From contig JBFESZ010000060.1 of NCBI GenBank assembly GCA_041548245.1, forward strand, positions 1 to 12,567: 12,567 nt of DNA. The letters are read 5' to 3'. The DNA comes from Sulfurimonadaceae bacterium. Its GTDB lineage: Bacteria; Campylobacterota; Campylobacteria; Campylobacterales; Sulfurimonadaceae. The notes beneath the pieces are model-generated. The model was not told the DNA's origin. It saw nothing but the letters and a program-made list of their open reading frames with translations, and made no database searches. Of this stretch, positions 344-12,567 are shown in pieces. Each line of letters starts with the position of its first letter. The stretch's first letter is position 1. The translations under genes were made by a program, and so were the position numbers.

Positions 344-2062
344 ATGGACTATACAAACCTTTATGACATTGGTATAAATAAACCTTCCATACCCAAACGA
401 ATATATGACAATTGGCAAACGATTGTTGATTCACTGGCAACTATTGCCGATGTCCCCTCCGCACTGATTATGCATGTCCTACCAACGTCTATAGAGGTCG
501 CCAGCAGTTCTAAAACACAACCTGAAAACAACCCCTACAGAGTTGCAGCATCAGAAGAATTGGGTTGTGGTCTTTATTGTGAAACTGTGATCAGAGAGAA
601 ACATGAACTCTATGTGCCCAATGCACTTAAAGATAAACATTGGAAAGACAACCCAGATATCAAGCTTAATATGATCAGCTATTATGGCCAACCTTTGCTT
701 TGGCCTGATGGCAAGATATACGGGACAATCTGTATACTAGATTCCAAAGACCTGCCCCTTTCCGACACTGTCAAAACCCTATTGGGAATCTTTCGCAAGA
801 GCATCGAGAACGATCTTGAATTATTGGAGTACACCCTTCATAAAGAGGTCGCTCTCAAAACTGAGATAGAGCAGAAAAACCAGGCCCTTTATGCCGCTGC
901 ACAAATCAGTATTGAGCTTGAAGAGTCTCAGGCTGAAGCACACAGAGCGAACTCCGCTAAATCAACTTTTTTAGCCAATATGAGTCATGAAATCAGAACC
1001 CCTCTGAACGCTATTATCGGGTTTGTCAACCTTTTGAAAAAAGAGAGTGAAGGAAGAAAAAAATCCCTTGAGTATATAAATATCATAGAGAACTCCAGCC
1101 ATACACTTTTGTATACGCTCGAGGAGATTTTAGACTTTTCAAAAATCGAAAGTGGTAAACTGACAATAGACCCTATCAATTTCAACCTAAAAGACCACCT
1201 TGGGGGTATTACCAATCTGTTTAATGCCAAATGTCTGGAAAAGAACATCAATCTTCTACTTACATTTGAGGACAACCTGCCAGAAGAGATCAACAGCGAC
1301 CCTCACCGAATCAAACAGGTCATATCAAATCTTCTAAGCAATGCCATAAAGTTTACCCCAGAAAACAAAAGCATAGAGGTCACAATAGGGTTTCAAGACA
1401 ACCAATTGAAAGTCAGTGTACAAGACCAGGGAAAAGGAATAGCACAAGACAAGCTCGCTCATATCTTTGAAGCTTTCTCTCAAGAAGACAATTCAACAAC
1501 ACGAGAATACGGCGGAACAGGCCTTGGACTGACGATTTGTAATGAGATCATACGGCTTTTAGGCGGTGAAACTATCATGGTCAAAAGTGAACTTGGCGTA
1601 GGAAGCAATTTTTCTTTTGAAATCCCTGTCAAAACAGTAAACTCAACTCCTATAAAACAAGAAAAAACCAATGCATTTGAGCTTTTTGACAAAAAGGTTC
1701 TTGTCGTTGAGGACAACCAGTCTAATCAACTTTTTATCAAAATTTTACTTGAAGATATGAATGTTGAATGCGACCTTGCCAATGACGGACTCGAAGCCAT
1801 CGAGATGTTCAAAACCGGGAGCTATGACGCCGTTTTCATGGATGAAAATATGCCTAATATGAGCGGTATTGAAGCCACCAGACATATTTTAGACTATGAA
1901 AAAGAGACAAACCTCCCACACACTCCTATCATTGCACTAACAGCTAACGCCCTTAAAGGTGATAGAGAAAGATTTTTAAGTGCAGGTATGGACGAATTCC
2001 TGAGCAAACCATTAGAGATACAAACATTGAATATGACACTATCAAAAATTTTTAAAAAATAA
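344..2062 (+). CDS. Cytoplasmic hybrid sensor histidine kinase (GAF-HisKA-HATPase_c-REC)
   Basis: 572 aa with no TM segment. N-terminal GAF (WQTIVD..A....VPSALIM, GLYCETV, VPNA, SYYGQPLLWPDG..YGTICILD). H-box [17 protein letters not shown]-box [11 protein letters not shown]1 DQGKGI, G2 GGTGLGL. Receiver VLVVEDN...FMDENMP...TANA...KP. Confidence 0.95.
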   Translation: MDYTNLYDIGINKPSIPKRIYDNWQTIVDSLATIADVPSALIMHVLPTSIEVASSSKTQPENNPYRVAASEELGCGLYCETVIREKHELYVPNALKDKHWKDNPDIKLNMISYYGQPLLWPDGKIYGTICILDSKDLPLSDTVKTLLGIFRKSIENDLELLEYTLHKEVALKTEIEQKNQALYAAAQISIELEESQAEAHRANSAKSTFLANMSHEIRTPLNAIIGFVNLLKKESEGRKKSLEYINIIENSSHTLLYTLEEILDFSKIESGKLTIDPINFNLKDHLGGITNLFNAKCLEKNINLLLTFEDNLPEEINSDPHRIKQVISNLLSNAIKFTPENKSIEVTIGFQDNQLKVSVQDQGKGIAQDKLAHIFEAFSQEDNSTTREYGGTGLGLTICNEIIRLLGGETIMVKSELGVGSNFSFEIPVKTVNSTPIKQEKTNAFELFDKKVLVVEDNQSNQLFIKILLEDMNVECDLANDGLEAIEMFKTGSYDAVFMDENMPNMSGIEATRHILDYEKETNLPHTPIIALTANALKGDRERFLSAGMDEFLSKPLEIQTLNMTLSKIFKK

Positions 2063-2155
2063 ACAATCATACATAGAATAGACACCATCTCTACCATGCA
2101 CTTTCGAAAGTACTTTTAATCCCTTTTACTTCATCTATCTTTTATAAAACTTAGT

Positions 2156-2161
2156 TAGAAT
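2156..2161 (+). promoter_or_regulatory. Putative -10 box (TAGAAT) for the DUF3050 gene
   Basis: TAGAAT preceded by phased T-tracts (about 2113-2143), the promoter style known from Campylobacterota; 26 nt before ATG 2188. Confidence 0.3.
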
Positions 2162-2178
2162 TCATACCAAAAAAAGAA

Positions 2179-2979
2179 GTGATCATCATGACGATTTTTC
2201 CCCTAGAAAATGTAAAAAAACTACGAAAAAAGCTTGCGACTCATCCTGTTTATGCAGCCATCTCGGATATACAGGACTTGACAATATTCATGCAACACCA
2301 TGTCTACTCGGTATGGGACTTCATGTCTTTGGTCAAATATCTTCAAAATCAGATTGCACCGGCTAAAACACCGTGGATTCCATACGGCGATGCACACGTT
2401 CAACGTTTTATTAATGATATCGTTCTCGAAGAGGAGTCAGATGAAGGCCTGCCACTCGAAGACGGTACACCCACATATACAAGTCATTTCAATCTTTATG
2501 CTCAGGCTATGGAAGAGGTAAAAGAAGGAAGCAGTAATCTTATTCATCAGTTTGTTGAAAAAGTAGCTACCCATTCTTTGGAGACAGCAATGAACACAAC
2601 ACCGATCCCTTCGGCTGCACAAGAATTCATGGAAACGACTTTTGATTTCATACACAGTGATAAACCACATGTGATTGCAGCGGCATTCGCCCTGGGGAGA
2701 GAACACATCATCCCTGAAATGTTCCGTGCATTGCTTGAAAAGATGCAGATATCACAAAATGAAGCCAAAGTCTTTCATTACTATCTGGATCGTCATATCC
2801 AACTTGACGGAGATCATCATGGACCGATGTCTTTGCGTATGTTAGAACTCTTATGTGAAGGGAACAAGCTTAAAATTTCTGAGGCTGAAGAAGCCGCTTT
2901 GCAGGCGATAAGGGCAAGAATAAAGTTTTGGGATGGTGTCCTGTTGGCAATAGAAAACAATAAAAAAATATCCGCCTAA
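2179..2979 (+). CDS. DUF3050-family protein, heme-oxygenase-like diiron oxidase (HDO) fold
   Basis: 266 aa from GTG 2179; ATG 2188 is an equally likely start. Family motifs HPVY..I....DL..FMQHHVYSVWDFMSL.K.LQ, PW.P, RFINDIVLEEESD, SHF..Y..AM, AAAFALGRE..IP.MF, YYLDRHIQLDGDHHGP, R..FWD. Confidence 0.85.
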   Translation: MIIMTIFPLENVKKLRKKLATHPVYAAISDIQDLTIFMQHHVYSVWDFMSLVKYLQNQIAPAKTPWIPYGDAHVQRFINDIVLEEESDEGLPLEDGTPTYTSHFNLYAQAMEEVKEGSSNLIHQFVEKVATHSLETAMNTTPIPSAAQEFMETTFDFIHSDKPHVIAAAFALGREHIIPEMFRALLEKMQISQNEAKVFHYYLDRHIQLDGDHHGPMSLRMLELLCEGNKLKISEAEEAALQAIRARIKFWDGVLLAIENNKKISA

Positions 2980-3003
2980 AAGCCTACACATCCATAACTT
3001 CTC

Positions 3004-3050
3004 GAGGAGCTGCTTTGAGCTACTATATAGCTTAAGCAGGTCTCTTTATT
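3004..3050 (+). terminator. Probable intrinsic terminator after the DUF3050 gene
   Basis: Hairpin CTGCTT(T)GAGCTA-ctata-TAGCTTAAGCAG (3010-3039) extended by GAGGA/TCTC and followed by TTTATT; starts about 25 nt after stop 2979. Confidence 0.55.
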
Positions 3051-3155
3051 GATAATCAAAGCATCACAAAAAAAATTTGACTACTATCTACACTTGTTCC
3101 TATCTTAATCAAAATATCTACTCATCACTCTCAAGTAAACATCCTGAATAGAATG

Positions 3156-3164
3156 TGATACAAT
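3156..3164 (+). promoter_or_regulatory. Extended -10 promoter (TGaTACAAT) for the kinase-HD-GYP-porin-PBP operon
   Basis: TGn + TACAAT about 105 nt upstream of ATG 3269 in an AT-rich intergenic region. Confidence 0.5.
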
Positions 3165-3268
3165 CGACAAAGAATATAAAGAGGTATTATAAGTTTACCT
3201 CTGGATTAGTCATGCCGTCTCAATAAAGATCAAAGGTTCATACCCTAATTTAACACTAAAGTCTAAAT

Positions 3269-6010
3269 ATGCAGCTACGTCAAGTCACCAACTTTTCCTC
3301 TTTTGTCGTCATATCCACTTCGGTATTCAGTCTTTTTCTGCTTTGGATGGTCTATAAGACCCATCAAGATGATAACGTCGCACAAACAAGTCGTCAGCAA
3401 TCGATTCAAATCGTCAATGATTTCCGTATCAATATGCTAGAGCTAAATCGCTTGGTCAAGAGCTATATCGCTACCGCCGATCCCAAATATCTCATCTACT
3501 ATTATGACCTCCTTGCTATTAATGACGGGACTAAAAAAGAACCCGAGCTCTATAACTCATCTGACTACTGGTTTGCTGTTATCGCAGGGAAAATAGAGCA
3601 CAAAATCTCTGCAGGAGATGGTGTCTCCATCGAACAAAAAATGAAAAATGAAGGCTTTTCACAAGACGAACTCAAAGAGTTGCACAAGGTCCTTCAAATC
3701 TCTGAAAAACTAAAAAAACTTGATCAGATAGCCTTTGCCGCTACGCAAGGACTTTATGACGCAAAAACAAAGAAGTTCATCGATGACGGAAATCCCGACC
3801 TTCAATACGCCTCACAGCTAATCTACAGCAAAGAATATATCGCTTTAAAAGCACAGCTTTACAATGCCATCGCCACCCTGATCGACATGACACAAACACG
3901 AACACGGACGATGATGGAACAAGCTGATGCCCAAGTAAAAAAATGGCTTATTATTTTTATCCTTTTTATGGGTTTTACCACATTCATCATCGTCAGCTCC
4001 TTTATCGCTATTCGAAAATTCATACTCAAGCCCCTTGAAGTCATCACCCAAGCAGTCCAAAGGATCACAAACGGAGACTACTCCTTTCACCTGAATGCAA
4101 CCCACTGGTTGCAGGAGCTTTCCCAGCTCGCTTCGACATTTAATACTATGGCCAGTGTTATCTCCACCGAGATTGAAAATAGAGAACGCAATAAATTGGA
4201 GCTTGAAAAAGCCAAAGAAACTGCCGAAGATGCCACTAGAACAAAATCCATCTTCCTTGCCAACATGTCGCATGAGATAAGAACCCCAATGAATGCTATT
4301 ATAGGAATGTCCTACCTGGCCTTGCAAACGGATCTCAATCCGAAACAAAAAGAGTTTATCGAACAGGTCAATATCGCTGCGAAATCCCTATTGGGTATCA
4401 TCAATGACATCCTCGACTTCTCTAAGATAGAAGCCGGTAAGATGGTAATTGAAAGCACCCCTTTTCAACTGAGACAGCTGCTTAACGAACTGATTGCCAT
4501 GCACAAGGTTCAAAGTAACAGTAAAAACATTGAGCTGATCTTTGATACCCATGATATTATCCTTAATGAAGATGCCCCCTACATCATAAGTGACAGATTA
4601 CGTCTTTCCCAGATCGTAAACAATCTGCTCTCCAACGCAATCAAATTTACCTCATCAGGGTCTGTAAAACTAGATGTGACATCTTCAAAACTTGCCAGCA
4701 ACCAGATAAATCTTTGCATCAATGTTCAAGACAGCGGTATTGGTATGAGCGAAGAGCAGCTGAAAAAGCTTTTTCAGGAATTCACGCAGATGGATGACTC
4801 TACCAGTAGGAAATATGGAGGAACAGGATTAGGGCTGGCCATCAGCAAAAATCTGGCCCGTCTTATGGGAGGCGATTTAACTGCGACAAGTATAGAGTCT
4901 CAGGGGAGCACCTTTACCCTGAAACTGTCATTACCTGTAACAACGGAAATAGAAAAAGAGCAACTAGAAACAGCCCAACCAAAAGCATCTGATCACAGTA
5001 TCCTCAATGGCATCCGTCTGCTTCTGGTCGAAGACAACCTGATGAACCAAAAGCTTGCCATCGAGCTCTTAAAAGACAAAGGCATCGACATCATCATTGC
5101 AAATAATGGGCAAGAGGCCGTTGATACCATCTTTAACAACCAAGCGGACTTTTTTGACATTATACTTATGGATATACAGATGCCCGTAATGAATGGTCAT
5201 GAAGCGACCATGAAAATAAGAGAGAATCCGAAGTATCAATCGCTGCCAATCATAGCAATGACCGCCAGCGTACTCAGTGAAGAGATCAATCAGTATATAC
5301 AAGAAGGCATGCAAGATCATATCGGTAAGCCTATAGAACCGGACGAACTCTTTGAAACTGTTGCTAAATATGCCAGACATAGGAGTCTTGAACAAACAAT
5401 TGAAATACAGCCTGAAAGTAAAAACGATATCACTATCAGCGGTTTGGACACAAACAAAGGCTTAAAATATGCAGCAAACAAAAAGGAGCTCTATATGCAG
5501 GTCCTACAGGAGTTTGTCCTTCAGTTCGAACACTTTGAAGAACAGATCAAAACACTGCTTCAGCGAGATGACATGGATACAGCACAAAGAGTCACACACA
5601 CCTTAAAGGGAATGCTAGGAAGTATAGGGGATACACATTTACATCCCAAAGCAGCGCAACTGGAAAGCTATTTTAAAGATAAAGATGTCCAGTCAGCCTT
5701 AAAAAGTTTGGATGAGTTTAAGAGTGCATTGGATATATTGATAGTTGAACTCAAAAGATTTTTGAATGACTTTAATCATAAGAAGGATGAAAAAGCTGTT
5801 CCGGCTGAAACAGATTTACGATGGCTGGATGATTGTCTAAAAGGGCTCAAAGAGAATAGTTTTAGTTCAATTGAGCTGTGGAACACAAACAAAGATTCAC
5901 TATGTTCAGTCATGACGGAACATGAGATTTCAACTATCTCAAAACTACTTTCAGATTTTGATTTTGAAAAAGCTCTGACAATTCTAGAAAAGGCAAAGCG
6001 TGATGTATAA
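3269..6010 (+). CDS. Membrane-bound unorthodox hybrid histidine kinase (TM-periplasmic sensor-TM-HAMP-HisKA-HATPase_c-REC-Hpt)
   Basis: 913 aa. TM1 about aa 10-29, about 195-aa periplasmic helical domain, TM2 [45 protein letters not shown]...[13 protein letters not shown]-box [57 protein letters not shown]. Hpt [12 protein letters not shown]. Confidence 0.95.
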
Positions 6011-7088
6011 CACAAAAGACAGTGTTTTAATCGTAGATGACACTCCGGCCAATGTTAAAGTTCTGGCAAACCTTTTAACAGACTCTTATGATGTAAAGAT
6101 TGCGAACAATGGCATCAAATGTCTGGAACTGGTGTCTAAATTCAGACCTGACATTATCCTTCTTGACGTCATGATGCCTGAACTAGACGGATGGGAAACC
6201 TGCAAAATCCTCAAGAGCGATCCAAAGAACAAAGATATTCCCATCATCTTTTTGACCGCTAAAAACAGTGTTGAAGATGAAGAACATGGCTTAGCCCTCG
6301 GTGCTGTTGACTTTATTAGCAAACCGATCAGTCCTCCCATAGTTAAAGCCCGGGTCAATACCCACCTGCAAAACAAAAAATATCAGGACTTTTTACGCGA
6401 TAAATCAGAATGGCTGGAGCAGGAGGTCGATCGTAAACTTTACCAGATCAACCAATTACAATATGCAACTATATCCGTTATGGTCTCTTTGGCAGAATTT
6501 AGAGATGAATGCACCGGTCTTCATATCAAAAGGACACAGACCTTTGTCGAAACCCTTGCCAAAGAGATGTCAGAACTACCTAAATATGCCGACTTTTTAA
6601 CCCCAGAGTATATCAATAAACTGGTCAAATCAACCCCCCTACATGATATAGGAAAGATCTCAATTCCCGATGAGATCCTATTAAAACCCGGAAAATTGAC
6701 GGATGATGAAATGCATATCATGAAAACACATGCCCAGAAGGGAGCCGATATACTTTTAGAGGCACAAAGATATCTCGAAGAGGACTCGGACTTTTTGCAG
6801 ATAGCTATTGAAATTGCGGGGTCCCATCATGAAAAATATAACGGGACTGGCTATCCGAAAGGACTTGCAGGGGACGCTATACCGCTTGCAGCGCGTTTAA
6901 TGGCTGTTGCTGATGTCTACGATGCCCTTACCACCGAGCGACCTTACAAAAAAGCTTTTTCTCATGAAAAAGCAATGGATATTATACTTCCAGACAGCGG
7001 TTCTCATTTTGACCCTGAGGTCATCGATGCTCTGTTAAAAAACCAGGACGAATTTCAATACATAGCCAGAAGGTTTAAAGATGCCTAA
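6003..7088 (+). CDS. Response regulator with HD-GYP domain (RpfG-like c-di-GMP phosphodiesterase)
   Basis: REC (VLIVDD, LLDVMMP, FLTA, KP) plus HD-GYP motifs [44 protein letters not shown] 6003 (GTG 6000 alternative) overlaps the kinase stop as ATGTATAA. Confidence 0.95.
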
Positions 7089-8133
7089 AAAACCAGCAAT
7101 CTATCAAATAAACAGACCCATAATTGCACTGCTATTGTTCTCAGCCAGTCTCTTTGCAATCGATACGAAGGTTTCAGGGTTTGCGACACTGGGGGCAACT
7201 ATCTCCAATAAAGATTACACCTATGAAAAATATGTTGATGACTCAGGAACGTTGCGAAGGGATACTCTGGCCGGTTTACAGTTGGATACCATCTTTAATG
7301 AGCAATTGGGTGCGACCATTCAGGGAAAAATCGCACAATCGCAAGAAAATGATGATCATTTCGAGCCTACTCTACCATGGGCTTTTTTATCGTACAGACC
7401 TGCCAATCACTGGTTGATTCGTGCAGGAAAAGTTCGTATCCCCTACTATCTGAACTCTCAAAACCAAGATGTCGGGGTTACCTATGATAATGCCACGCTT
7501 CCTAAAGAGGTCTATAATCTCAGCCCTTATGATAACGGTACCGGAGGGATTGTAACCAAAACGTTCAATGTGGAATCAGCCTCTGTTGATCTTGATCTTT
7601 TCTATATCCATCTGGATATCACGACAAGACAATATATCACGGGAATCGGACCGATATTTACGACATTCGATCTTGATGTCAAAGGGACTGCTCTTACCTG
7701 TGAAACAGATGAGAATAATGTTTTTAGAGGAGGGTATTATCATACATCTGTCTCTGGCCTAAATATCGATATCCTTACCTTGGGTATGGACTATAACTTT
7801 CAAGACAAATGGCGATTAATGAGTGAATACACCGGAGTCAAAATAGAAAAATTTGACAACTACCATGCCGGCTACGTATCAGTTTTAAAATCAATGGATA
7901 ATTGGACGCCCTATATTACCTATGCCTTTGCACAGCCTTGGGATACAGGCAGGGAAAGTATTGCCGTGGGGACTTCTTATAGTATAAACTATTTACAGAA
8001 GCTAAAAGCGGAGCTTAAATATACGAGACTGGGGAATAACCCCTATCAACTAATCGATATCGAACTGCCATCTAATAATTATGCCTATGAGACACCGACG
8101 CTTTTCTCATTTTCATATAATATAGCATTTTAA
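7081..8133 (+). CDS. Putative outer-membrane beta-barrel (porin-like) protein
   Basis: 350 aa. Signal peptide ending SLFA, first strand KVSGFATLG, many alternating amphipathic strands (GLQLD, WAFLSY, IRAGK.RIP, GYVSV, TPYITYA, VGTSY, LKAELKY). C-terminal BAM-type signal FSFSYNIAF. 8-bp overlap ATGCCTAA with the HD-GYP gene. Confidence 0.8.
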   Translation: MPKKPAIYQINRPIIALLLFSASLFAIDTKVSGFATLGATISNKDYTYEKYVDDSGTLRRDTLAGLQLDTIFNEQLGATIQGKIAQSQENDDHFEPTLPWAFLSYRPANHWLIRAGKVRIPYYLNSQNQDVGVTYDNATLPKEVYNLSPYDNGTGGIVTKTFNVESASVDLDLFYIHLDITTRQYITGIGPIFTTFDLDVKGTALTCETDENNVFRGGYYHTSVSGLNIDILTLGMDYNFQDKWRLMSEYTGVKIEKFDNYHAGYVSVLKSMDNWTPYITYAFAQPWDTGRESIAVGTSYSINYLQKLKAELKYTRLGNNPYQLIDIELPSNNYAYETPTLFSFSYNIAF

Positions 8134-8142
8134 GGAGCTTGT

Positions 8143-8547
8143 ATGAGATCACTACTGTTTTTCATCTTACTACAAGCCTTCTTGAACGCAGACGAGATCG
8201 TTATCATCACCCATACCAATGTCGCAAAACTCAATAAAGAGAATATCACCAAGGTCTATACAGGAAAACTTATTAAGATCAATAATGTCCCGATTATTCC
8301 GATTCATAGAAAAGAAAATAGTATAGAGAATGATTTTTTACAGCAATACCTTAATATGGACAGAGATAAATACATCGCATATTGGACGGTACGTCAATAT
8401 ATAGGAAAAGGGACGGCTCCAAAAGCACTTCGTTCGAGCAAAGAGGTTTTGAATTTTGTTAAGAACACCAAAGGTGCCGTTGCTTACATCACGAAAAAAG
8501 AGTTACGGGACAACCCTATTGAAGGGGTTCTTACCTTTGCCTATTGA
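8143..8547 (+). CDS. Small secreted periplasmic-binding-protein-like protein (often auto-annotated as phosphate ABC substrate-binding; function unknown)
   Basis: 134 aa with AGGAG RBS overlapping the porin stop and signal peptide MRSLLFFILLQAFLNA. Motifs IVII.H, L.K..I.K.Y.GK, Y..YW.....GKG.AP, V..FV..T.GAVAY, recognised by eye as the short PBP-like family found next to porins. Confidence 0.7.
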   Translation: MRSLLFFILLQAFLNADEIVIITHTNVAKLNKENITKVYTGKLIKINNVPIIPIHRKENSIENDFLQQYLNMDRDKYIAYWTVRQYIGKGTAPKALRSSKEVLNFVKNTKGAVAYITKKELRDNPIEGVLTFAY

Positions 8548-8556
8548 CAATTTAAT

Positions 8557-10269
8557 TTAAGACAGTTCGATTAAAAACGACACGCCACCGTTTTGATTAG
8601 TCGCTGTAATCTTTCCGGAAAGGTTATCCTCAATAATAATTTTTGACATGTACAATCCAAGTCCTGTTCCGTTCAATGAACCTTTGGTCGTATAATAGGG
8701 ATCAAATACCTTTTCGATAATTGCTTCATTAATCCCCCCTGCATTGTCATAGACTTCTATATAGAACCGATTGTCCTTCTTGTATGTCTTAATACCGATA
8801 CTCTTATCTTTGATCTGTTTATCATCAAAGGCTTCTTGGGCATTCTTCAACAAGTTGATAAGCACTTGCTTTAACTCATTAGGAAGACTTAGCAGGCTCT
8901 CATTACACTGATAGTCTCTCACTACAGCAATACCTGAGATCTTAAGTGTCGGTTCAAGAATACTCAACGAATCATCCGAAACAGCTTCCAGCGTCGTCTC
9001 CTGCATCGTCTTGTCCTCTTTGAAAAAGCTTCTGAAATCATCGATTGTCTTTGAGAGATGCTGTGTATACTCTGTTATTCTATTCAACTCTTTTTCCAAG
9101 AACTCGTCCGTAGTTTTACCCATTATCCGTTTCATCTGAAGCGTACCGACTGTGGCCGCGATGGAAGACAGAGGCTGTCTCCATTGATGTGCTATCATGG
9201 CTATCATCTCACCCATTTGTGCATGCCTTGCCTGCTTGAAAAGCTGTGTTTCCTGTGCTTTCTTCTCTCTTTCAAGCAGGGTCTGCTCCGTTATGTCATC
9301 ATAAACCCCCAGAATACCTATCACCTTATCATGGGTATCCACTAAAGGTACTTTCGATGTTCTTAAGTAAATGACACTGCCATCTTCTTTAGGCTGTTCC
9401 TCTTCATATTGAAGTTGAGGCACACCGCTATTTACGACCTTAGCATCATCTGCTCTGAATCTCTCGGCATCCTTTTTCCATGTCATATCGTAATCCGTCT
9501 TTCCTAGTATCTGTGATACCGAGCTTAGTTGTGCATCCTTCACAAATGCCTCATTGGCACCTAAATAGACACCATTCAGGTCTTTCCAAAAGATCCGTAC
9601 CGGTACAAGGTTGATAATATTTTGCAGAAACTTATGCTGGGTTTTGATAGAGTCTTTTGACGCTTTGAGCTCATATGTCTGTTTACGAGCGACGATTATG
9701 CTCCAGAAGAAAAAGGAAGCCGTCAACAATATAACGACGCTGATGATAAGAATCAATCTCTCAAACTGCTTTTTGGCTTCATCATCAAAACGATGAATTT
9801 CAGATTCCACAAACTGTTGAAAGACTTTAAACCCACGCATATATAACGCTTTGTATTCGTTATACTCTTCGCCAGACATTATCCTCTGTGCCCCTTGATA
9901 CTTCCCCTGTTTTACAAATTCAATTGCTTTTCGCTCCAAAGCGACCAATGCCTTATTACTCTTTTCGATATCATTCAGAGAAACAGTTGATTCAGGCATG
10001 ACTTCTTTAGCTTTTGCAATCGTTTTCGCCAGTTCTCTATCGGCTTTTTCATAACGTTCGATCCACTGAAGCGAATGCGACATTGCCGCCATGTTTGCTG
10101 ACATGCTCAAAACCTCGTCATAATATCGGATATCTTCCGCAAGGGTTATCAAAGCATCGGAATTTTTATGAAATTGGAATAAGCTGCCTTTTTGCTGGTT
10201 TAATAAAAGCAAAGAGCTCAGCAGTCCTAACATTACGACTATTCCAAGTATCAAAATTTTCTTTTTCAA
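8557..10269 (-). CDS. Membrane sensor histidine kinase (TM-periplasmic helical domain-TM-PAS-HisKA-HATPase_c), orphan
   Basis: 570 aa, TTG start with AAGG RBS, two TM segments. PAS (IFWKD..G.YLGAN..F, ILGKTDYD, SKVPL.D...VIGILGVYDDIT). H-box MGEMIAMIAHQWRQPL, NLLKNA, DNAGGI, FDPYYTTK, GTGLGL. Confidence 0.93.
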   Translation of the reverse strand: MKKKILILGIVVMLGLLSSLLLLNQQKGSLFQFHKNSDALITLAEDIRYYDEVLSMSANMAAMSHSLQWIERYEKADRELAKTIAKAKEVMPESTVSLNDIEKSNKALVALERKAIEFVKQGKYQGAQRIMSGEEYNEYKALYMRGFKVFQQFVESEIHRFDDEAKKQFERLILIISVVILLTASFFFWSIIVARKQTYELKASKDSIKTQHKFLQNIINLVPVRIFWKDLNGVYLGANEAFVKDAQLSSVSQILGKTDYDMTWKKDAERFRADDAKVVNSGVPQLQYEEEQPKEDGSVIYLRTSKVPLVDTHDKVIGILGVYDDITEQTLLEREKKAQETQLFKQARHAQMGEMIAMIAHQWRQPLSSIAATVGTLQMKRIMGKTTDEFLEKELNRITEYTQHLSKTIDDFRSFFKEDKTMQETTLEAVSDDSLSILEPTLKISGIAVVRDYQCNESLLSLPNELKQVLINLLKNAQEAFDDKQIKDKSIGIKTYKKDNRFYIEVYDNAGGINEAIIEKVFDPYYTTKGSLNGTGLGLYMSKIIIEDNLSGKITATNQNGGVSFLIELS

Positions 10270-10355: not shown

Positions 10356-11120
10356 TCAATCGGAGCCCTTCAGCATCGATGATGGACGACTCATAAATAC
10401 AATAGCGATCATGGTTGCCAGCGATCCTGTAAAGACAATGCTATACCCTGTCGGCAAGTCGAAAAGATAGGATATGACAATGGCACCCAGACTAAAGAAC
10501 CATCCGTAAACAAAGGCAAACCCCATCGGTTTAAAGCGCCTCTGAAGTGAGGCCAAGAGTGCCGGCGCGACCAAAAGAACAAAAACGACCAAGACTCCTG
10601 CCAATTGAACAGAAGAGGTTACTGTCACCGCGAGCATGCTAAAAAACACCAGCTCTTTGATGAAGCCCTCAAGCCGTGGGTAGACTTTCCATATCAATAT
10701 CCCTAAGAACAGATAAATGAGACTGCTATAGATGACATGCTCAATCGGTGTAAACAATATATCACTCGCAAGCAAAGCCTTGAAATGCTCCATCCCTTCG
10801 GCAGAATCGGCCAGTACCATCATGATACCACTGGCACCAAAGACATACAGGATTCCAATAAACGCCTCAAGGTTGATCGTTCGGCGTGTTGCAACCGAAA
10901 TAAACAGTGCACACAGCAGGGCAAAGCCCAAAGTTAAAAGATAGATATATTCGCTGTGAAAATAACCCAGACTGATAGCACTTCCTAATGCGGCAAACTG
11001 GGCAATAGCCAGATCAGTAAAGATAATGCCTCGCTCCAAAATTCCTTTTCCAAACCAAGCATGGATCATCACCAATACGATGACTAGAAGTGTCGAAGGT
11101 AAAAAGATATCAATCATCAT
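10356..11120 (-). CDS. Metal (Zn/Mn-type) ABC transporter permease, ZnuB/MntB-like
   Basis: Highly hydrophobic, about 254 aa. RGIIFTDLAIAQFAALG, EAFIGILY, L..DILF, VT.SVQLAGVLVVFVLLVAPA, SYLFDLPTGYSIV. Start moved to ATG 11120/11117, which overlaps the SBP stop, rather than the track start at 11144. Confidence 0.88.
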   Translation of the reverse strand: MMIDIFLPSTLLVIVLVMIHAWFGKGILERGIIFTDLAIAQFAALGSAISLGYFHSEYIYLLTLGFALLCALFISVATRRTINLEAFIGILYVFGASGIMMVLADSAEGMEHFKALLASDILFTPIEHVIYSSLIYLFLGILIWKVYPRLEGFIKELVFFSMLAVTVTSSVQLAGVLVVFVLLVAPALLASLQRRFKPMGFAFVYGWFFSLGAIVISYLFDLPTGYSIVFTGSLATMIAIVFMSRPSSMLKGSD

Positions 11121-11991
11121 GAACCGCTTGAGTAAGATAATCAAATAGCTCTACCAGCGAGTGGATTGAATCCAATGCACCGACATCATGAGGGATAATG
11201 ACAAGTTTCGCTCCTGTCTTTGCCGTGATGAACTCAGCAGTCTTTGTAGAGTGATAGACATCATGCAAAATACAGCGGACATGCTTTTTGTTCATCAGGT
11301 TTATCAACTCTAGCGTATGACGTGAGGAGGGCGGTATTCCCGGCAAAGGCTCAATGGTACCTACTGTCTTTAATCCGTAAGCCTGATTAAAATAGGCAAG
11401 AGAGTCATGAAACTGTACGACCTCCATGCCTTCTTTGTCTTGCATAATAGCCTTCCAGCGTTGCATGTGTGTACGCCATGTCCTATCGAACTGCTTGAAG
11501 TTTATCTCGTATTCTTGTGTATGCTCGGTATCAAGACGACCTAGAAACTTTGCGATACTTTGCGCCAAAAGAGGTATATTGTGGGGGTCCAGATGAAAAT
11601 GGGGGTTCCCTTCCGGATGGACATCTCCCATTGAACGGTCTACATTCTGCGGTTTTTGAATAAGGCTGACCTGATGGGAAAGGTTCAAAAAAGAGTCTGC
11701 ATTAGGCATAACTGCCCGATTGGATGCACGCCGTATCAAAGGAGGCAACCATCCTATCTCAAGTTGAGCACCGTTCATGATCAAAGCATCCGAACGCCTT
11801 AGTTTAGCGATTAAAGAAGGCCGAGGAACGACAAAATGTGGGTCCCAGTTTCCCTTGGCCAATACCGTCACCTCGACATGCTCTGCACCGATCTGTTCGA
11901 CAATAGCTCCTATGTAAGGATACGAGACAGCAACGTTAAGCTGTGCGAACAGTACCAGAGGCAAGATCAACAAGAAGAGAGACTTTTTCAT
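11110..11991 (-). CDS. Metal ABC transporter substrate-binding protein (TroA/ZnuA/AdcA cluster A-I family)
   Basis: 293 aa with signal peptide ending VLFA. His-ligand motifs DPHFV.P.PS, GDVHPEGNPHFHLDP, FHDSLAYF, plus EP.PGIPPS..H. AGGA RBS overlaps the upstream stop. Confidence 0.92.
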   Translation of the reverse strand: MKKSLFLLILPLVLFAQLNVAVSYPYIGAIVEQIGAEHVEVTVLAKGNWDPHFVVPRPSLIAKLRRSDALIMNGAQLEIGWLPPLIRRASNRAVMPNADSFLNLSHQVSLIQKPQNVDRSMGDVHPEGNPHFHLDPHNIPLLAQSIAKFLGRLDTEHTQEYEINFKQFDRTWRTHMQRWKAIMQDKEGMEVVQFHDSLAYFNQAYGLKTVGTIEPLPGIPPSSRHTLELINLMNKKHVRCILHDVYHSTKTAEFITAKTGAKLVIIPHDVGALDSIHSLVELFDYLTQAVHDD

Positions 11992-12000
11992 CTGCCAATC

Positions 12001-12567
12001 CTAAAAATCATGCGCGGCATGTGCACCGATAGCAAGGTTGAAAGAGAGTATCAATGACTGAACTGCCTCTTTTTCATAACCGGCAGCCGTTTCTGCATAC
12101 AAGGCAGCATTGTAGTTATATTGCAGGCGCAAACGGCTGAACTCGCTGAAATGGTACTCGAGCATGGCAGTATAGCGTTCATACGCTGTTGAAGGCAATA
12201 CTGTTTCAACAACTGCCATTTCATTCTTGTAGATGGCATCATAACGTGCTCCCATCCGCCAGTTCTGATCATGGGCATAGAGCAATTGTGTATAGATCCC
12301 TTCTTGAGCAACCTTCTGCTCTCCAGAATTAATCAGGACATTATTTTCATATTCATAATATGTACCTTTTTGCTCTTTGCGCATCCATTCGCTTTGCCAT
12401 GTCATAAAACTGTACGAATCAAAATCGTGCTTTACTGTCAGTTCCGCATTGTATATCCAACTGACTCCGCTAAACGCTTCTTCAACACCTTCATGCAAAT
12501 GATAACTTCTTGTCTCGCCATAGACATAGGCGAGACCCGGGATCACTGTTGTTTCACCAATATCAAA
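12001..12567 (-). CDS. C-terminal part of an outer-membrane beta-barrel protein with His-containing tail (metal-uptake associated); 5' end outside the window
   Basis: The frame is open to the window edge (FDIGETTVIPG...), so the track's GTG start at 12546 is internal. Amphipathic strands GIYTQLLY, WRMGARYD, SEFSRLRLQYNY. C-terminus IGAHAAHDF ends in Phe. Confidence 0.8.
   Translation of the reverse strand, partial: FDIGETTVIPGLAYVYGETRSYHLHEGVEEAFSGVSWIYNAELTVKHDFDSYSFMTWQSEWMRKEQKGTYYEYENNVLINSGEQKVAQEGIYTQLLYAHDQNWRMGARYDAIYKNEMAVVETVLPSTAYERYTAMLEYHFSEFSRLRLQYNYNAALYAETAAGYEKEAVQSLILSFNLAIGAHAAHDF

Follow-up and report, generated by a model that had tools for sequence, protein, structure and literature searches.

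For most bacterial sensor kinases the input is unknown, and the passage of signals across the outer membrane to these kinases is seldom addressed. In Vibrio chitin sensing, the chitoporin ChiP, the periplasmic protein CBP and the hybrid kinase ChiS act in series across the envelope; CBP is the full-size binding protein of an ATP-binding cassette (ABC) transporter, and the genes of the three do not form one operon. Components for a similar series are encoded by four co-directional genes at positions 3269 to 8547 of the forward (+) strand of contig JBFESZ010000060.1 (assembly GCA_041548245.1), from a Sulfurimonadaceae bacterium; the whole stretch analysed, 12,567 nucleotides (nt) in length, is referred to as the window. 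In order along the + strand, these genes encode a hybrid sensor histidine kinase, a response regulator with a REC and an HD-GYP domain, a porin-type barrel, and a secreted protein of about half the size of a periplasmic binding protein (PBP), which will be called the mini-PBP. It is held here, with modest confidence, that the four genes constitute one operon encoding an envelope-spanning signalling module with a conserved core of three parts. With the same modest confidence, the core is taken to consist of a solute-specific porin in the outer membrane, a soluble periplasmic lobe of the PstS type, and an inner-membrane receptor with a periplasmic domain of about 200 aa.

As in the Vibrio system, the products encoded in the window include a porin, a PBP-type periplasmic protein and a hybrid kinase that may act in series, and the top Foldseek match of its barrel is the chitoporin of V. 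harveyi (11% identity, a likeness at the level of the fold only). The RpfC-RpfG system is comparable in its cytoplasmic part. The input of RpfC is a multi-pass membrane sensor for diffusible signal factor (DSF), whereas that of the window kinase is made up of two transmembrane (TM) segments around a 200-aa periplasmic domain, with the porin and the mini-PBP in addition. In the cytoplasm, the same HisKA-HATPase-REC-Hpt series adjoins a REC-HD-GYP protein; this layout of a hybrid kinase with Hpt beside an HD-GYP regulator had been proposed in a preliminary description of the DNA, and it is recovered by Pfam, with both the HD and the GYP motifs in place.

According to a review (PMC8534201), LuxQ recognises autoinducer 2 (AI-2) via LuxP, and TorS is an all-alpha sensor with TorT/trimethylamine N-oxide (TMAO) as its ligand. 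In LuxP-LuxQ and TorT-TorS, as in the window, a separate secreted PBP-type protein accompanies a hybrid kinase having a periplasmic sensor, and no transporter takes part in the signalling. In contrast to LuxP and TorT, which are full two-lobed proteins that enclose the ligand, the mini-PBP has a single lobe of 118 mature residues. Moreover, the window sensor domain has no detectable sequence relation to the sensors of TorS or LuxQ, and the window unit includes a dedicated porin.

The YfiBNR system is described, in PMC4655355, as consisting of the outer-membrane YfiB, the periplasmic YfiR and the inner-membrane cyclase YfiN, with the level of cyclic di-GMP (c-di-GMP) as its output; YfiR is there made up of one PBP-type sub-domain, forms dimers and undergoes sequestration at the outer membrane. 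The window resembles YfiBNR in having one component per envelope compartment, a single PBP-type sub-domain and a predicted c-di-GMP output. However, YfiB is an OmpA/Pal-like lipoprotein, whereas the outer-membrane part of the window is a 16-strand porin without a lipobox; YfiR belongs to DUF4154, whereas the mini-PBP is PstS-like (type II); and YfiN is a membrane cyclase, whereas the window receptor is a kinase with a predicted phosphorelay to the HD-GYP protein. The two periplasmic families are linked by a natural fusion of 270 aa (P0169), in which a mini-PBP domain is joined to a YfiR/HmsC-like DUF4154 domain (E 1.4e-22). Comparison of the mini-PBP with the DUF4154 part of this protein, on the other hand, gave no homology (hhalign probability 0.9%), and the window mini-PBP itself has no DUF4154 match.

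The logic of an accessory periplasmic protein that assists a membrane sensor, with one component in each compartment, is therefore known. It is the particular triad of porin, mini-PBP and sensor domain that is without precedent; none of these three periplasm-facing parts is covered by a family model, and a limited literature search returned no description of a module of this composition.

The four genes and their products

The kinase gene (913 aa; 3269..6010, +) overlaps the regulator gene (361 aa from its ATG; 6003..7088, +) by 8 nt, the kinase stop and the regulator start sharing the stretch ATGTATAA (6003..6010, +). The regulator gene also has a GTG one codon upstream of this ATG, at 6000. 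Its stop in turn shares an 8-nt overlap, ATGCCTAA (7081..7088, +), with the start of the barrel gene (350 aa; 7081..8133, +). The TAA of the latter (8131-8133) is followed, after a 9-nt gap, by the ATG (8143) of the mini-PBP gene (134 aa; 8143..8547, +), with the ribosome-binding site AGGAG at 8133..8137 (+). All the junctions of the preliminary description, namely two 8-nt ATGnnTAA overlaps and a 9-nt gap with AGGAG between four co-directional genes, are thus present at 3269-8547. Its assignment of the parts to compartments also stands, but its heading named the porin first, whereas the actual gene order starts with the kinase and ends with the mini-PBP.

Because the reading frames overlap or nearly abut, in the window as well as in the survey loci described below, co-expression is indicated. 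A promoter and terminator scan of positions 2900-8700 gave 19 promoter-like and 6 terminator-like sites, which is the level of shuffled sequence (15.1 and 5.1, respectively), and so speaks neither for nor against co-transcription. None of the four proteins received a name from NCBIfam.

The kinase consists of TM1 (residues ~9-29), the periplasmic domain, TM2 (~226-248) and, by Pfam, HAMP, HisKA, HATPase_c, REC and Hpt. Its translation contains SHEIRTP as the H-box, ILMDIQMP in the REC domain and HTLKG in the Hpt domain. The NCBIfam models of BarA, TorS and LuxQ match only its cytoplasmic part, at scores far below their cut-offs. The regulator matches REC (8e-27) and HD_5 (1.8e-34; also HD), and its translation has the HD motif HDIGK, the GYP motif and the REC phospho-acceptor motif; it is a predicted c-di-GMP phosphodiesterase.

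The periplasmic sensor domain of the kinase (residues 29-228; 3353..3952, +) is the part that lies between the two hydrophobic segments. The mean column identity in the alignment of 32 such domains is 67%, with AFAATQG, YxD and a W invariant, and on the evidence of this alignment the conservation is unusually high for a sensor. A profile scan of the 32 members found no Pfam family. CHASE3 (PF05227) matches four of them, with a best E of 0.05 and without reaching the Pfam model score. No PDB chain, those of TorS and LuxQ included, was reached by the profile of the 32 domains at E ≤ 5. In Atlas, the domain falls with unnamed clusters (0.97), and a CHASE3 cluster appears at rank 11 (score 0.93, with only 137 shared features). 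Possibly, the domain represents an unnamed, very conserved family that is a distant relative of CHASE3. Its closest genomic relative (44% identity) was seen in a metagenome-assembled genome (MAG) from a sulfidic cave (locus L008), in which kinase, porin and mini-PBP are present and no HD-GYP gene lies within the available stretch; the record is labelled Helicobacter cetorum, a label that looks doubtful for such a sample.

The barrel was modelled as 16 strands from an alignment of 50 relatives, with a predicted local distance difference test score (pLDDT) of 90.2 and with a 36-residue inward loop (residues 118-153) between strands 5 and 6. Foldseek against PDB returned porins only (E from 5e-12; template modelling score by query, TMq, 0.41-0.65 among the matches listed), comprising VhChiP, OmpT/OmpU, the anion-selective Omp32, OmpK36/OmpC and OprP/OprO, with the highest TMq (0.65) for OprP. 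By eye, the N-terminus has the hydrophobic stretch of a signal peptide, ending in ...SLFA, and the C-terminus, ...YNIAF, has a terminal aromatic residue; there is no lipobox. The barrel reaches no Pfam family (OMP_b-brl, 15.3 bits against a cut-off of 28.7), whereas one relative (P0035) passes Porin_4 with 31 bits against 27. Homologues of the barrel number 75, most of them longer than 400 aa and without a functional name, and the named sources among them are MAGs of Sulfurimonas, Campylobacterales or Desulfobulbus. Two insertions of 32 and 37 residues that are present in at least half of the relatives are missing from the window barrel. Conservation peaks at a predicted periplasmic turn (106-110; 0.89), in strand 5 (0.80) and in loop L3 (0.71), compared with a mean of 0.58 for the mature protein. 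The conserved constriction loop L3 suggests that the barrel is a solute-specific porin.

The mini-PBP has a 16-residue signal peptide and ~118 mature residues and, because it contains no Cys, it is not a lipoprotein. Its model (pLDDT 86.5) matches PstS-type phosphate-binding proteins in Foldseek with TMq of ~0.5-0.63 and with scores by target (TMt) of 0.23-0.36; since the latter amount to about a quarter to a third of each PstS target, the protein corresponds to one lobe. It stays below the Pfam gathering score of PBP_like_2 (PF12849; 22.9 bits against 27, over profile positions 92-187 of 267) and far below NCBIfam PstS (TIGR00975; 16.3 bits against 205). Proteins of the PstS/PBP_like_2 type have two hinge-joined lobes enclosing the ligand and are encoded with an ABC permease and an ATPase, whereas the mini-PBP has one lobe and its operon contains neither. 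The outer-membrane beta-barrel and the secreted PBP of about half size, as the preliminary description had called these two proteins, are borne out by the porin-type model with its exclusively porin matches and by the signal peptide and PstS-like single lobe, respectively.

The mini-PBP belongs to a large family. A HMMER scan with a profile of seven sequences puts the number of representatives at 5110 for E ≤ 1e-3 and at 1254 for E ≤ 1e-10. The close subfamily has the invariant motif KYxAYWTVRxYIGKG, while in looser relatives a W..R.F.G core is retained and the score often attains the threshold of PBP_like_2. Nearly all of the best 150 relatives are stand-alone proteins of 130-180 aa; the others include seven of 244-292 aa with two mini-PBP stretches, and one of 477 aa. 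The two-stretch members would fit a working unit of two copies. In Atlas, the mini-PBP falls among unnamed clusters of ~140 aa that are commonest in Campylobacterota. A profile search among proteins of 374-2000 aa found no fused forms at E ≤ 1e-5, which is weak evidence.

The 477-aa relative (P0208) has a mini-PBP domain, a QTEY-rich linker and ~300 barrel-looking residues ending in ...SLSAMF. It was considered as a fusion of a mini-PBP with a porin and rejected, the hhalign probability against the porin profile being 0.5% and a Pfam match being absent. C-terminal extensions of ~45 residues are seen on the mini-PBPs of three survey loci (L012:10049-10528, L019:7199-7651 and L040:10034-10498). 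In L012 and L040 the extension repeats the last part of the domain (GKG..P..L.S...I..Y...G..GYID...NVIA.R), a partial internal duplication.

As to the ligand, an oxyanion was considered because Omp32, OprP and OprO are among the fold matches of the barrel and because the lobe is PstS-like. It is kept as a guess only, since the scores of the chitoporin and of general porins are no worse and the window mini-PBP does not have the loop residues. In a weak profile alignment with PDB 4q8r (E 0.2), the SGTR of PstS lies opposite the G-x-x-x-R region of the mini-PBP family; at the two positions that are a nearly invariant G and R in most relatives, the window protein carries N and E.

Linkage and outputs in other genomes

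A collection of species-representative genomes was scanned with the mini-PBP alignment, which gave 77 loci; the genome of the window is not among these, and the best identity was 49%. Open reading frames (ORFs) of these loci were called by a simple script and searched with local profiles. The carriers, Betaproteobacteria among them, are Thiobacillus, Sulfuriferula, Nitrotoga, Gallionellaceae, Sulfuricella, Rhodoferax and other Comamonadaceae, Duganella, Pseudoduganella, Methylococcales, Desulfuromonadales, Geobacteraceae, Desulfonema and one Campylobacterota-like MAG.

A porin homologue lies directly upstream of the mini-PBP, on the same strand, in 70 of the 77 loci. In the remaining seven, the upstream sequence is no longer than 814 nt, and in six of them, at contig ends, no more than 200 nt precede the mini-PBP. 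Measured to the earliest start that the mini-PBP could use, the spacing after the porin stop lies between -14 and +13 nt, most often at 11 nt, in 63 of the 64 pairs for which it was resolved (10 of 74 pairs were left unresolved by the crude start rule). Homologues of the sensor domain were found in 50 of the 77 loci (phmmer with kinase residues 29-228; E 1e-26 to 1e-56). Among the 52 loci whose sequence extends for 4.5 kb or more on the upstream side of the porin, the sensor domain is present in all except four (48/52).

The preliminary description had expected an invariant pair of porin and mini-PBP with interchangeable histidine kinase, methyl-accepting chemotaxis protein (MCP) or GGDEF partners. 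The invariance of the pair is upheld, with one real exception taken up below. The interchangeability is not, because the membrane receptor is nearly always the same and it is the transmitter and output parts that vary instead. Since the sensor domain is kept while the outputs vary, the constant unit consists of porin, mini-PBP and sensor domain, rather than of a pair with freely swapped receptors. The only chemoreceptor partner in the survey is that of a Desulfuromonadaceae MAG (L024), where the mini-PBP (201-722) stands at the contig start. After it come an MCP of 816 aa, much of it periplasmic (1428-3878), and a full-length PBP_like_2 protein of 256 aa (L024:3912-4682).

The divergence of the three components was compared by correlation of distance matrices in 30 loci (L040 and L064 having been dropped from 32); the sequence pairs in such a comparison are non-independent. 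Mini-PBP and sensor domain gave r = 0.855 (partial 0.56 after the kinase core), and mini-PBP and porin gave r = 0.58 (partial 0.33). This is suggestive only, and would mean that the mini-PBP has diverged more in step with the sensor domain than with the porin.

Only five ORFs with both Walker A and LSGGQ motifs occur across the 77 loci, the nearest at 4.2 kb from a mini-PBP. No ABC, tripartite ATP-independent periplasmic (TRAP) or TonB component was found by Pfam beside the unit among the neighbours in L001-L025 (126 ORFs), among those in the exceptions and assorted loci (28 ORFs), or among 35 of the 43 unclassified co-directional neighbours in L026-L077. Location of the pairs mainly beside ABC permeases or ATPases, which the preliminary description had named as the finding that would speak against it, was therefore not observed, and no ABC transporter is adjacent. 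Unrelated neighbours seen were TctC-type receptors (on the opposite strand), an SMR pump and SecDF.

For the 50 loci bearing a sensor domain, output genes were counted up to a distance of 6.5 kb from the pair, and were labelled by homology to exemplars identified by Pfam. A REC-HD-GYP gene is present in 18 of the 50, a REC-GGDEF gene in 14, and a REC-class III cyclase gene in 13, while no output gene was detected in six; the counts sum to 51, as one locus has both HD-GYP and cyclase. The REC-GGDEF gene is always accompanied by a protein of ~363 aa with a CrtC N-terminal lipocalin and a Lipocalin_9 domain, which is the fourth conserved partner in these loci (L001-L007, L010, L011, L015, L016, L021, L032 and L075, of Thiobacillus, Sulfuriferula and Nitrotoga). 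It is encoded between the GGDEF gene and the porin, for example at L001:7447-8535. Eight loci of the Duganella or Rhodoferax type have an extra REC-REC-kinase downstream, and in L012 and L019 the kinase comes after the pair, not before.

In two loci the sensor domain is found on an ORF of 588 aa instead of a kinase (L040, 2041-3807; L042, 2191-3957). By Pfam, that of L040 is a fusion of the sensor domain with HAMP-SpoIIE (PP2C phosphatase), and the next genes encode a DUF6272 (SiaB-like) protein (3897-4454), SiaC (4545-4982), a cytoplasmic hybrid kinase, REC-HD-GYP, porin and mini-PBP. The sensor-bearing ORF of L042 is of like size and may be a similar SiaA-like fusion. In Pseudomonas aeruginosa SiaABCD, a SiaA/B/C partner switch is reported to control a diguanylate cyclase (PMC7647112, PMC8457831). 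L040 is similar, having sensor domain-HAMP-SpoIIE followed by DUF6272 and SiaC, whereas the arrangement in the window is different.

When 50 sensor domains were placed on a quick maximum-likelihood tree, the GGDEF loci, 14 in number, came together in a single clade (support 100) and the cyclase loci made up another, of 11 (support 99), while the HD-GYP loci are spread over the remainder. A long branch unites the window with the Campylobacterota-like L008. Since these output types fall in single clades, swaps of output look like few events.

Tandem porin and mini-PBP pairs were seen in L030 (three), L049 (two to three) and L064 (two), which suggests that the pair is duplicated and diverges as a unit. 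Toxin-antitoxin genes (PhdYeFM, PIN, HigB) just downstream of or between pairs in L006, L010, L015, L022 and L049 are probably incidental.

Readings of the conserved triad

Under the signalling-module reading, the porin would admit a small solute or report the state of the outer membrane. The mini-PBP would be a periplasmic co-sensor or adaptor that contacts the periplasmic domain of the kinase, by analogy with LuxP-LuxQ, TorT-TorS and YfiR-YfiN, and its single lobe would probably complete a binding surface together with a second mini-PBP copy or with the sensor domain. A His-Asp-His relay through HisKA, REC and Hpt of the kinase would then phosphorylate the REC domain of the adjacent HD-GYP protein, and this phosphorylation would set the hydrolysis of c-di-GMP. 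The fusion with DUF4154 and the members with two domains in tandem are in keeping with a regulator acting as a pair.

Several observations weigh against this reading. In L025, the one real exception to the pairing, the REC-Hpt end of a kinase lies directly upstream of the mini-PBP with no porin between them. Among the four exceptions to the presence of the sensor domain, L041 and L077 have the porin/mini-PBP pair with no signalling gene beside it by Pfam, L033 has other sensors, a REC-PAS-GGDEF-EAL protein and a dCache-PAS kinase, on the opposite strand, and L062 has merely a porin remnant of 128 aa. The survey reaches the close mini-PBP subfamily only, its patterns being drawn from seven sequences and yielding 80 loci at most, compared with a family of 5110 members. 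Many of the loci are from closely related genomes (Thiobacillus, Nitrotoga, Rhodoferax, Duganella), so that the raw counts overstate the number of independent observations. The N and E of the window mini-PBP, in the loop that is weakly aligned with the SGT of PstS, make classical PstS-type binding unlikely for this protein. Finally, the same gene linkage would result if the porin and the mini-PBP served merely for uptake of the very solute that the kinase detects unaided.

A wider form of the signalling-module reading is entertained more tentatively and is rather unlikely to be correct in full. It sees in the loci a widespread class of tripartite envelope sensor, in which porin, half-size binding protein and new sensor domain form one receptor, and in which the lobe, lacking a cleft, closes on the ligand against the sensor domain or a second copy. 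Capture of the ligand would then be the same event as engagement of the receptor, and the porin would set which solute arrives. Such a front end would be plugged into kinases or into a SiaA-like phosphatase, in pairings with genes of three kinds of second-messenger enzyme (HD-GYP, GGDEF and class III cyclase).

The next reading, an uptake pair beside an independent sensor, is considered unlikely. Here the porin and the mini-PBP would pass or capture a solute, for example as a channel with a periplasmic cap or escort, while the kinase would sense this solute or another stimulus directly by means of its periplasmic domain, and the mini-PBP would stand outside the signalling. The tightest linkage is indeed that between porin and mini-PBP (70/77 loci; spacing -14 to +13 nt), L041 and L077 have the pair but no sensor domain, and the pair is found in tandem copies in L030, L049 and L064; the conservation of loop L3, among the most conserved parts of the porin (0.71 vs 0.58), is likewise what a specific channel would show. 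However, a solute passed on by such a pair would meet no inner-membrane transporter to take it over, and 48 of the 52 loci with context have the sensor domain as well. In L025, moreover, it is the porin that is missing between kinase and mini-PBP, and the divergence of the mini-PBP is, weakly, closer to that of the sensor domain than to that of the porin.

Somewhat less probable still is a stress relay of the YfiBNR kind without any small-molecule ligand, in which the mini-PBP would inhibit or activate the kinase and would be captured or released by the outer-membrane protein upon perturbation of the envelope, the condition of which, and not a chemical, would be the signal. YfiR, in PMC4655355, is also a single PBP-type sub-domain, dimeric and sequestered by an outer-membrane partner, and the natural fusion P0169 brings the two families together. 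The most conserved element of the porin is the predicted periplasmic turn 106-110 (0.89), which could be a docking site, and the lack of the G..R loop residues of its relatives in the window mini-PBP is a further point in favour. On the other hand, the window has as its outer-membrane partner a full porin, whose constriction loop is conserved, and not an OmpA-like lipoprotein, and mini-PBP and DUF4154 have no detectable sequence relation (hhalign probability 0.9%).

That the genes are neighbours by history only, as a block inherited within related lineages and with no functional coupling, is very improbable: although many of the 77 loci are from close genomes and the output types are single clades on the sensor-domain tree, as in vertically inherited blocks, the three-way linkage spans several phyla, persists despite changed gene order (L012, L019) and outputs (the 588-aa ORF of L040 and L042), and includes overlapping or near-abutting frames that indicate co-expression.

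The constant triad points to a way of sensing at the cell envelope that would be new to the literature. Three unnamed families recur jointly in several phyla, in the company of second-messenger outputs: a porin without a Pfam or NCBIfam model, a single-lobe PBP of ~135 aa with thousands of relatives, and a sensor domain of ~200 aa with neither model nor structure. They provide a concrete, testable unit for signalling from the outside to second messengers, as well as a possible role for a large half-size PBP family whose members are now labelled hypothetical or mislabelled as phosphate-transport proteins. If a single lobe does complete a binding site on its receptor, this would be more than a variant of the known accessory-assisted sensing. 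Since there are cultured carriers among the loci (Duganella and Pseudoduganella strains), genetic analysis is feasible.

Surroundings of the four genes in the window

Downstream of the operon by 1.8 kb, on the opposite strand, lie the genes of an ABC-3 permease (10356-11144, -) and a ZnuA-type binding protein (11110-11991, -), which share a 35-nt overlap and are a separate metal-uptake unit. The statement of the preliminary description that no permease or ATPase is present accordingly holds for the operon but not for the window as a whole. A 181-aa ORF upstream of these two genes (12001-12546, -) has no Pfam or NCBIfam match.

The region of the window around the operon is a signalling-gene cluster. 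A PAS kinase gene (8557-10269, -) is convergent with the operon, its stop being 9 nt from the mini-PBP stop. On the other side, a hybrid kinase with GAF-HisKA-HATPase-REC by Pfam is encoded upstream of the operon (344-2062, +), and between the two there is a DUF3050 (haem-oxygenase-like) gene (2179-2979, +).

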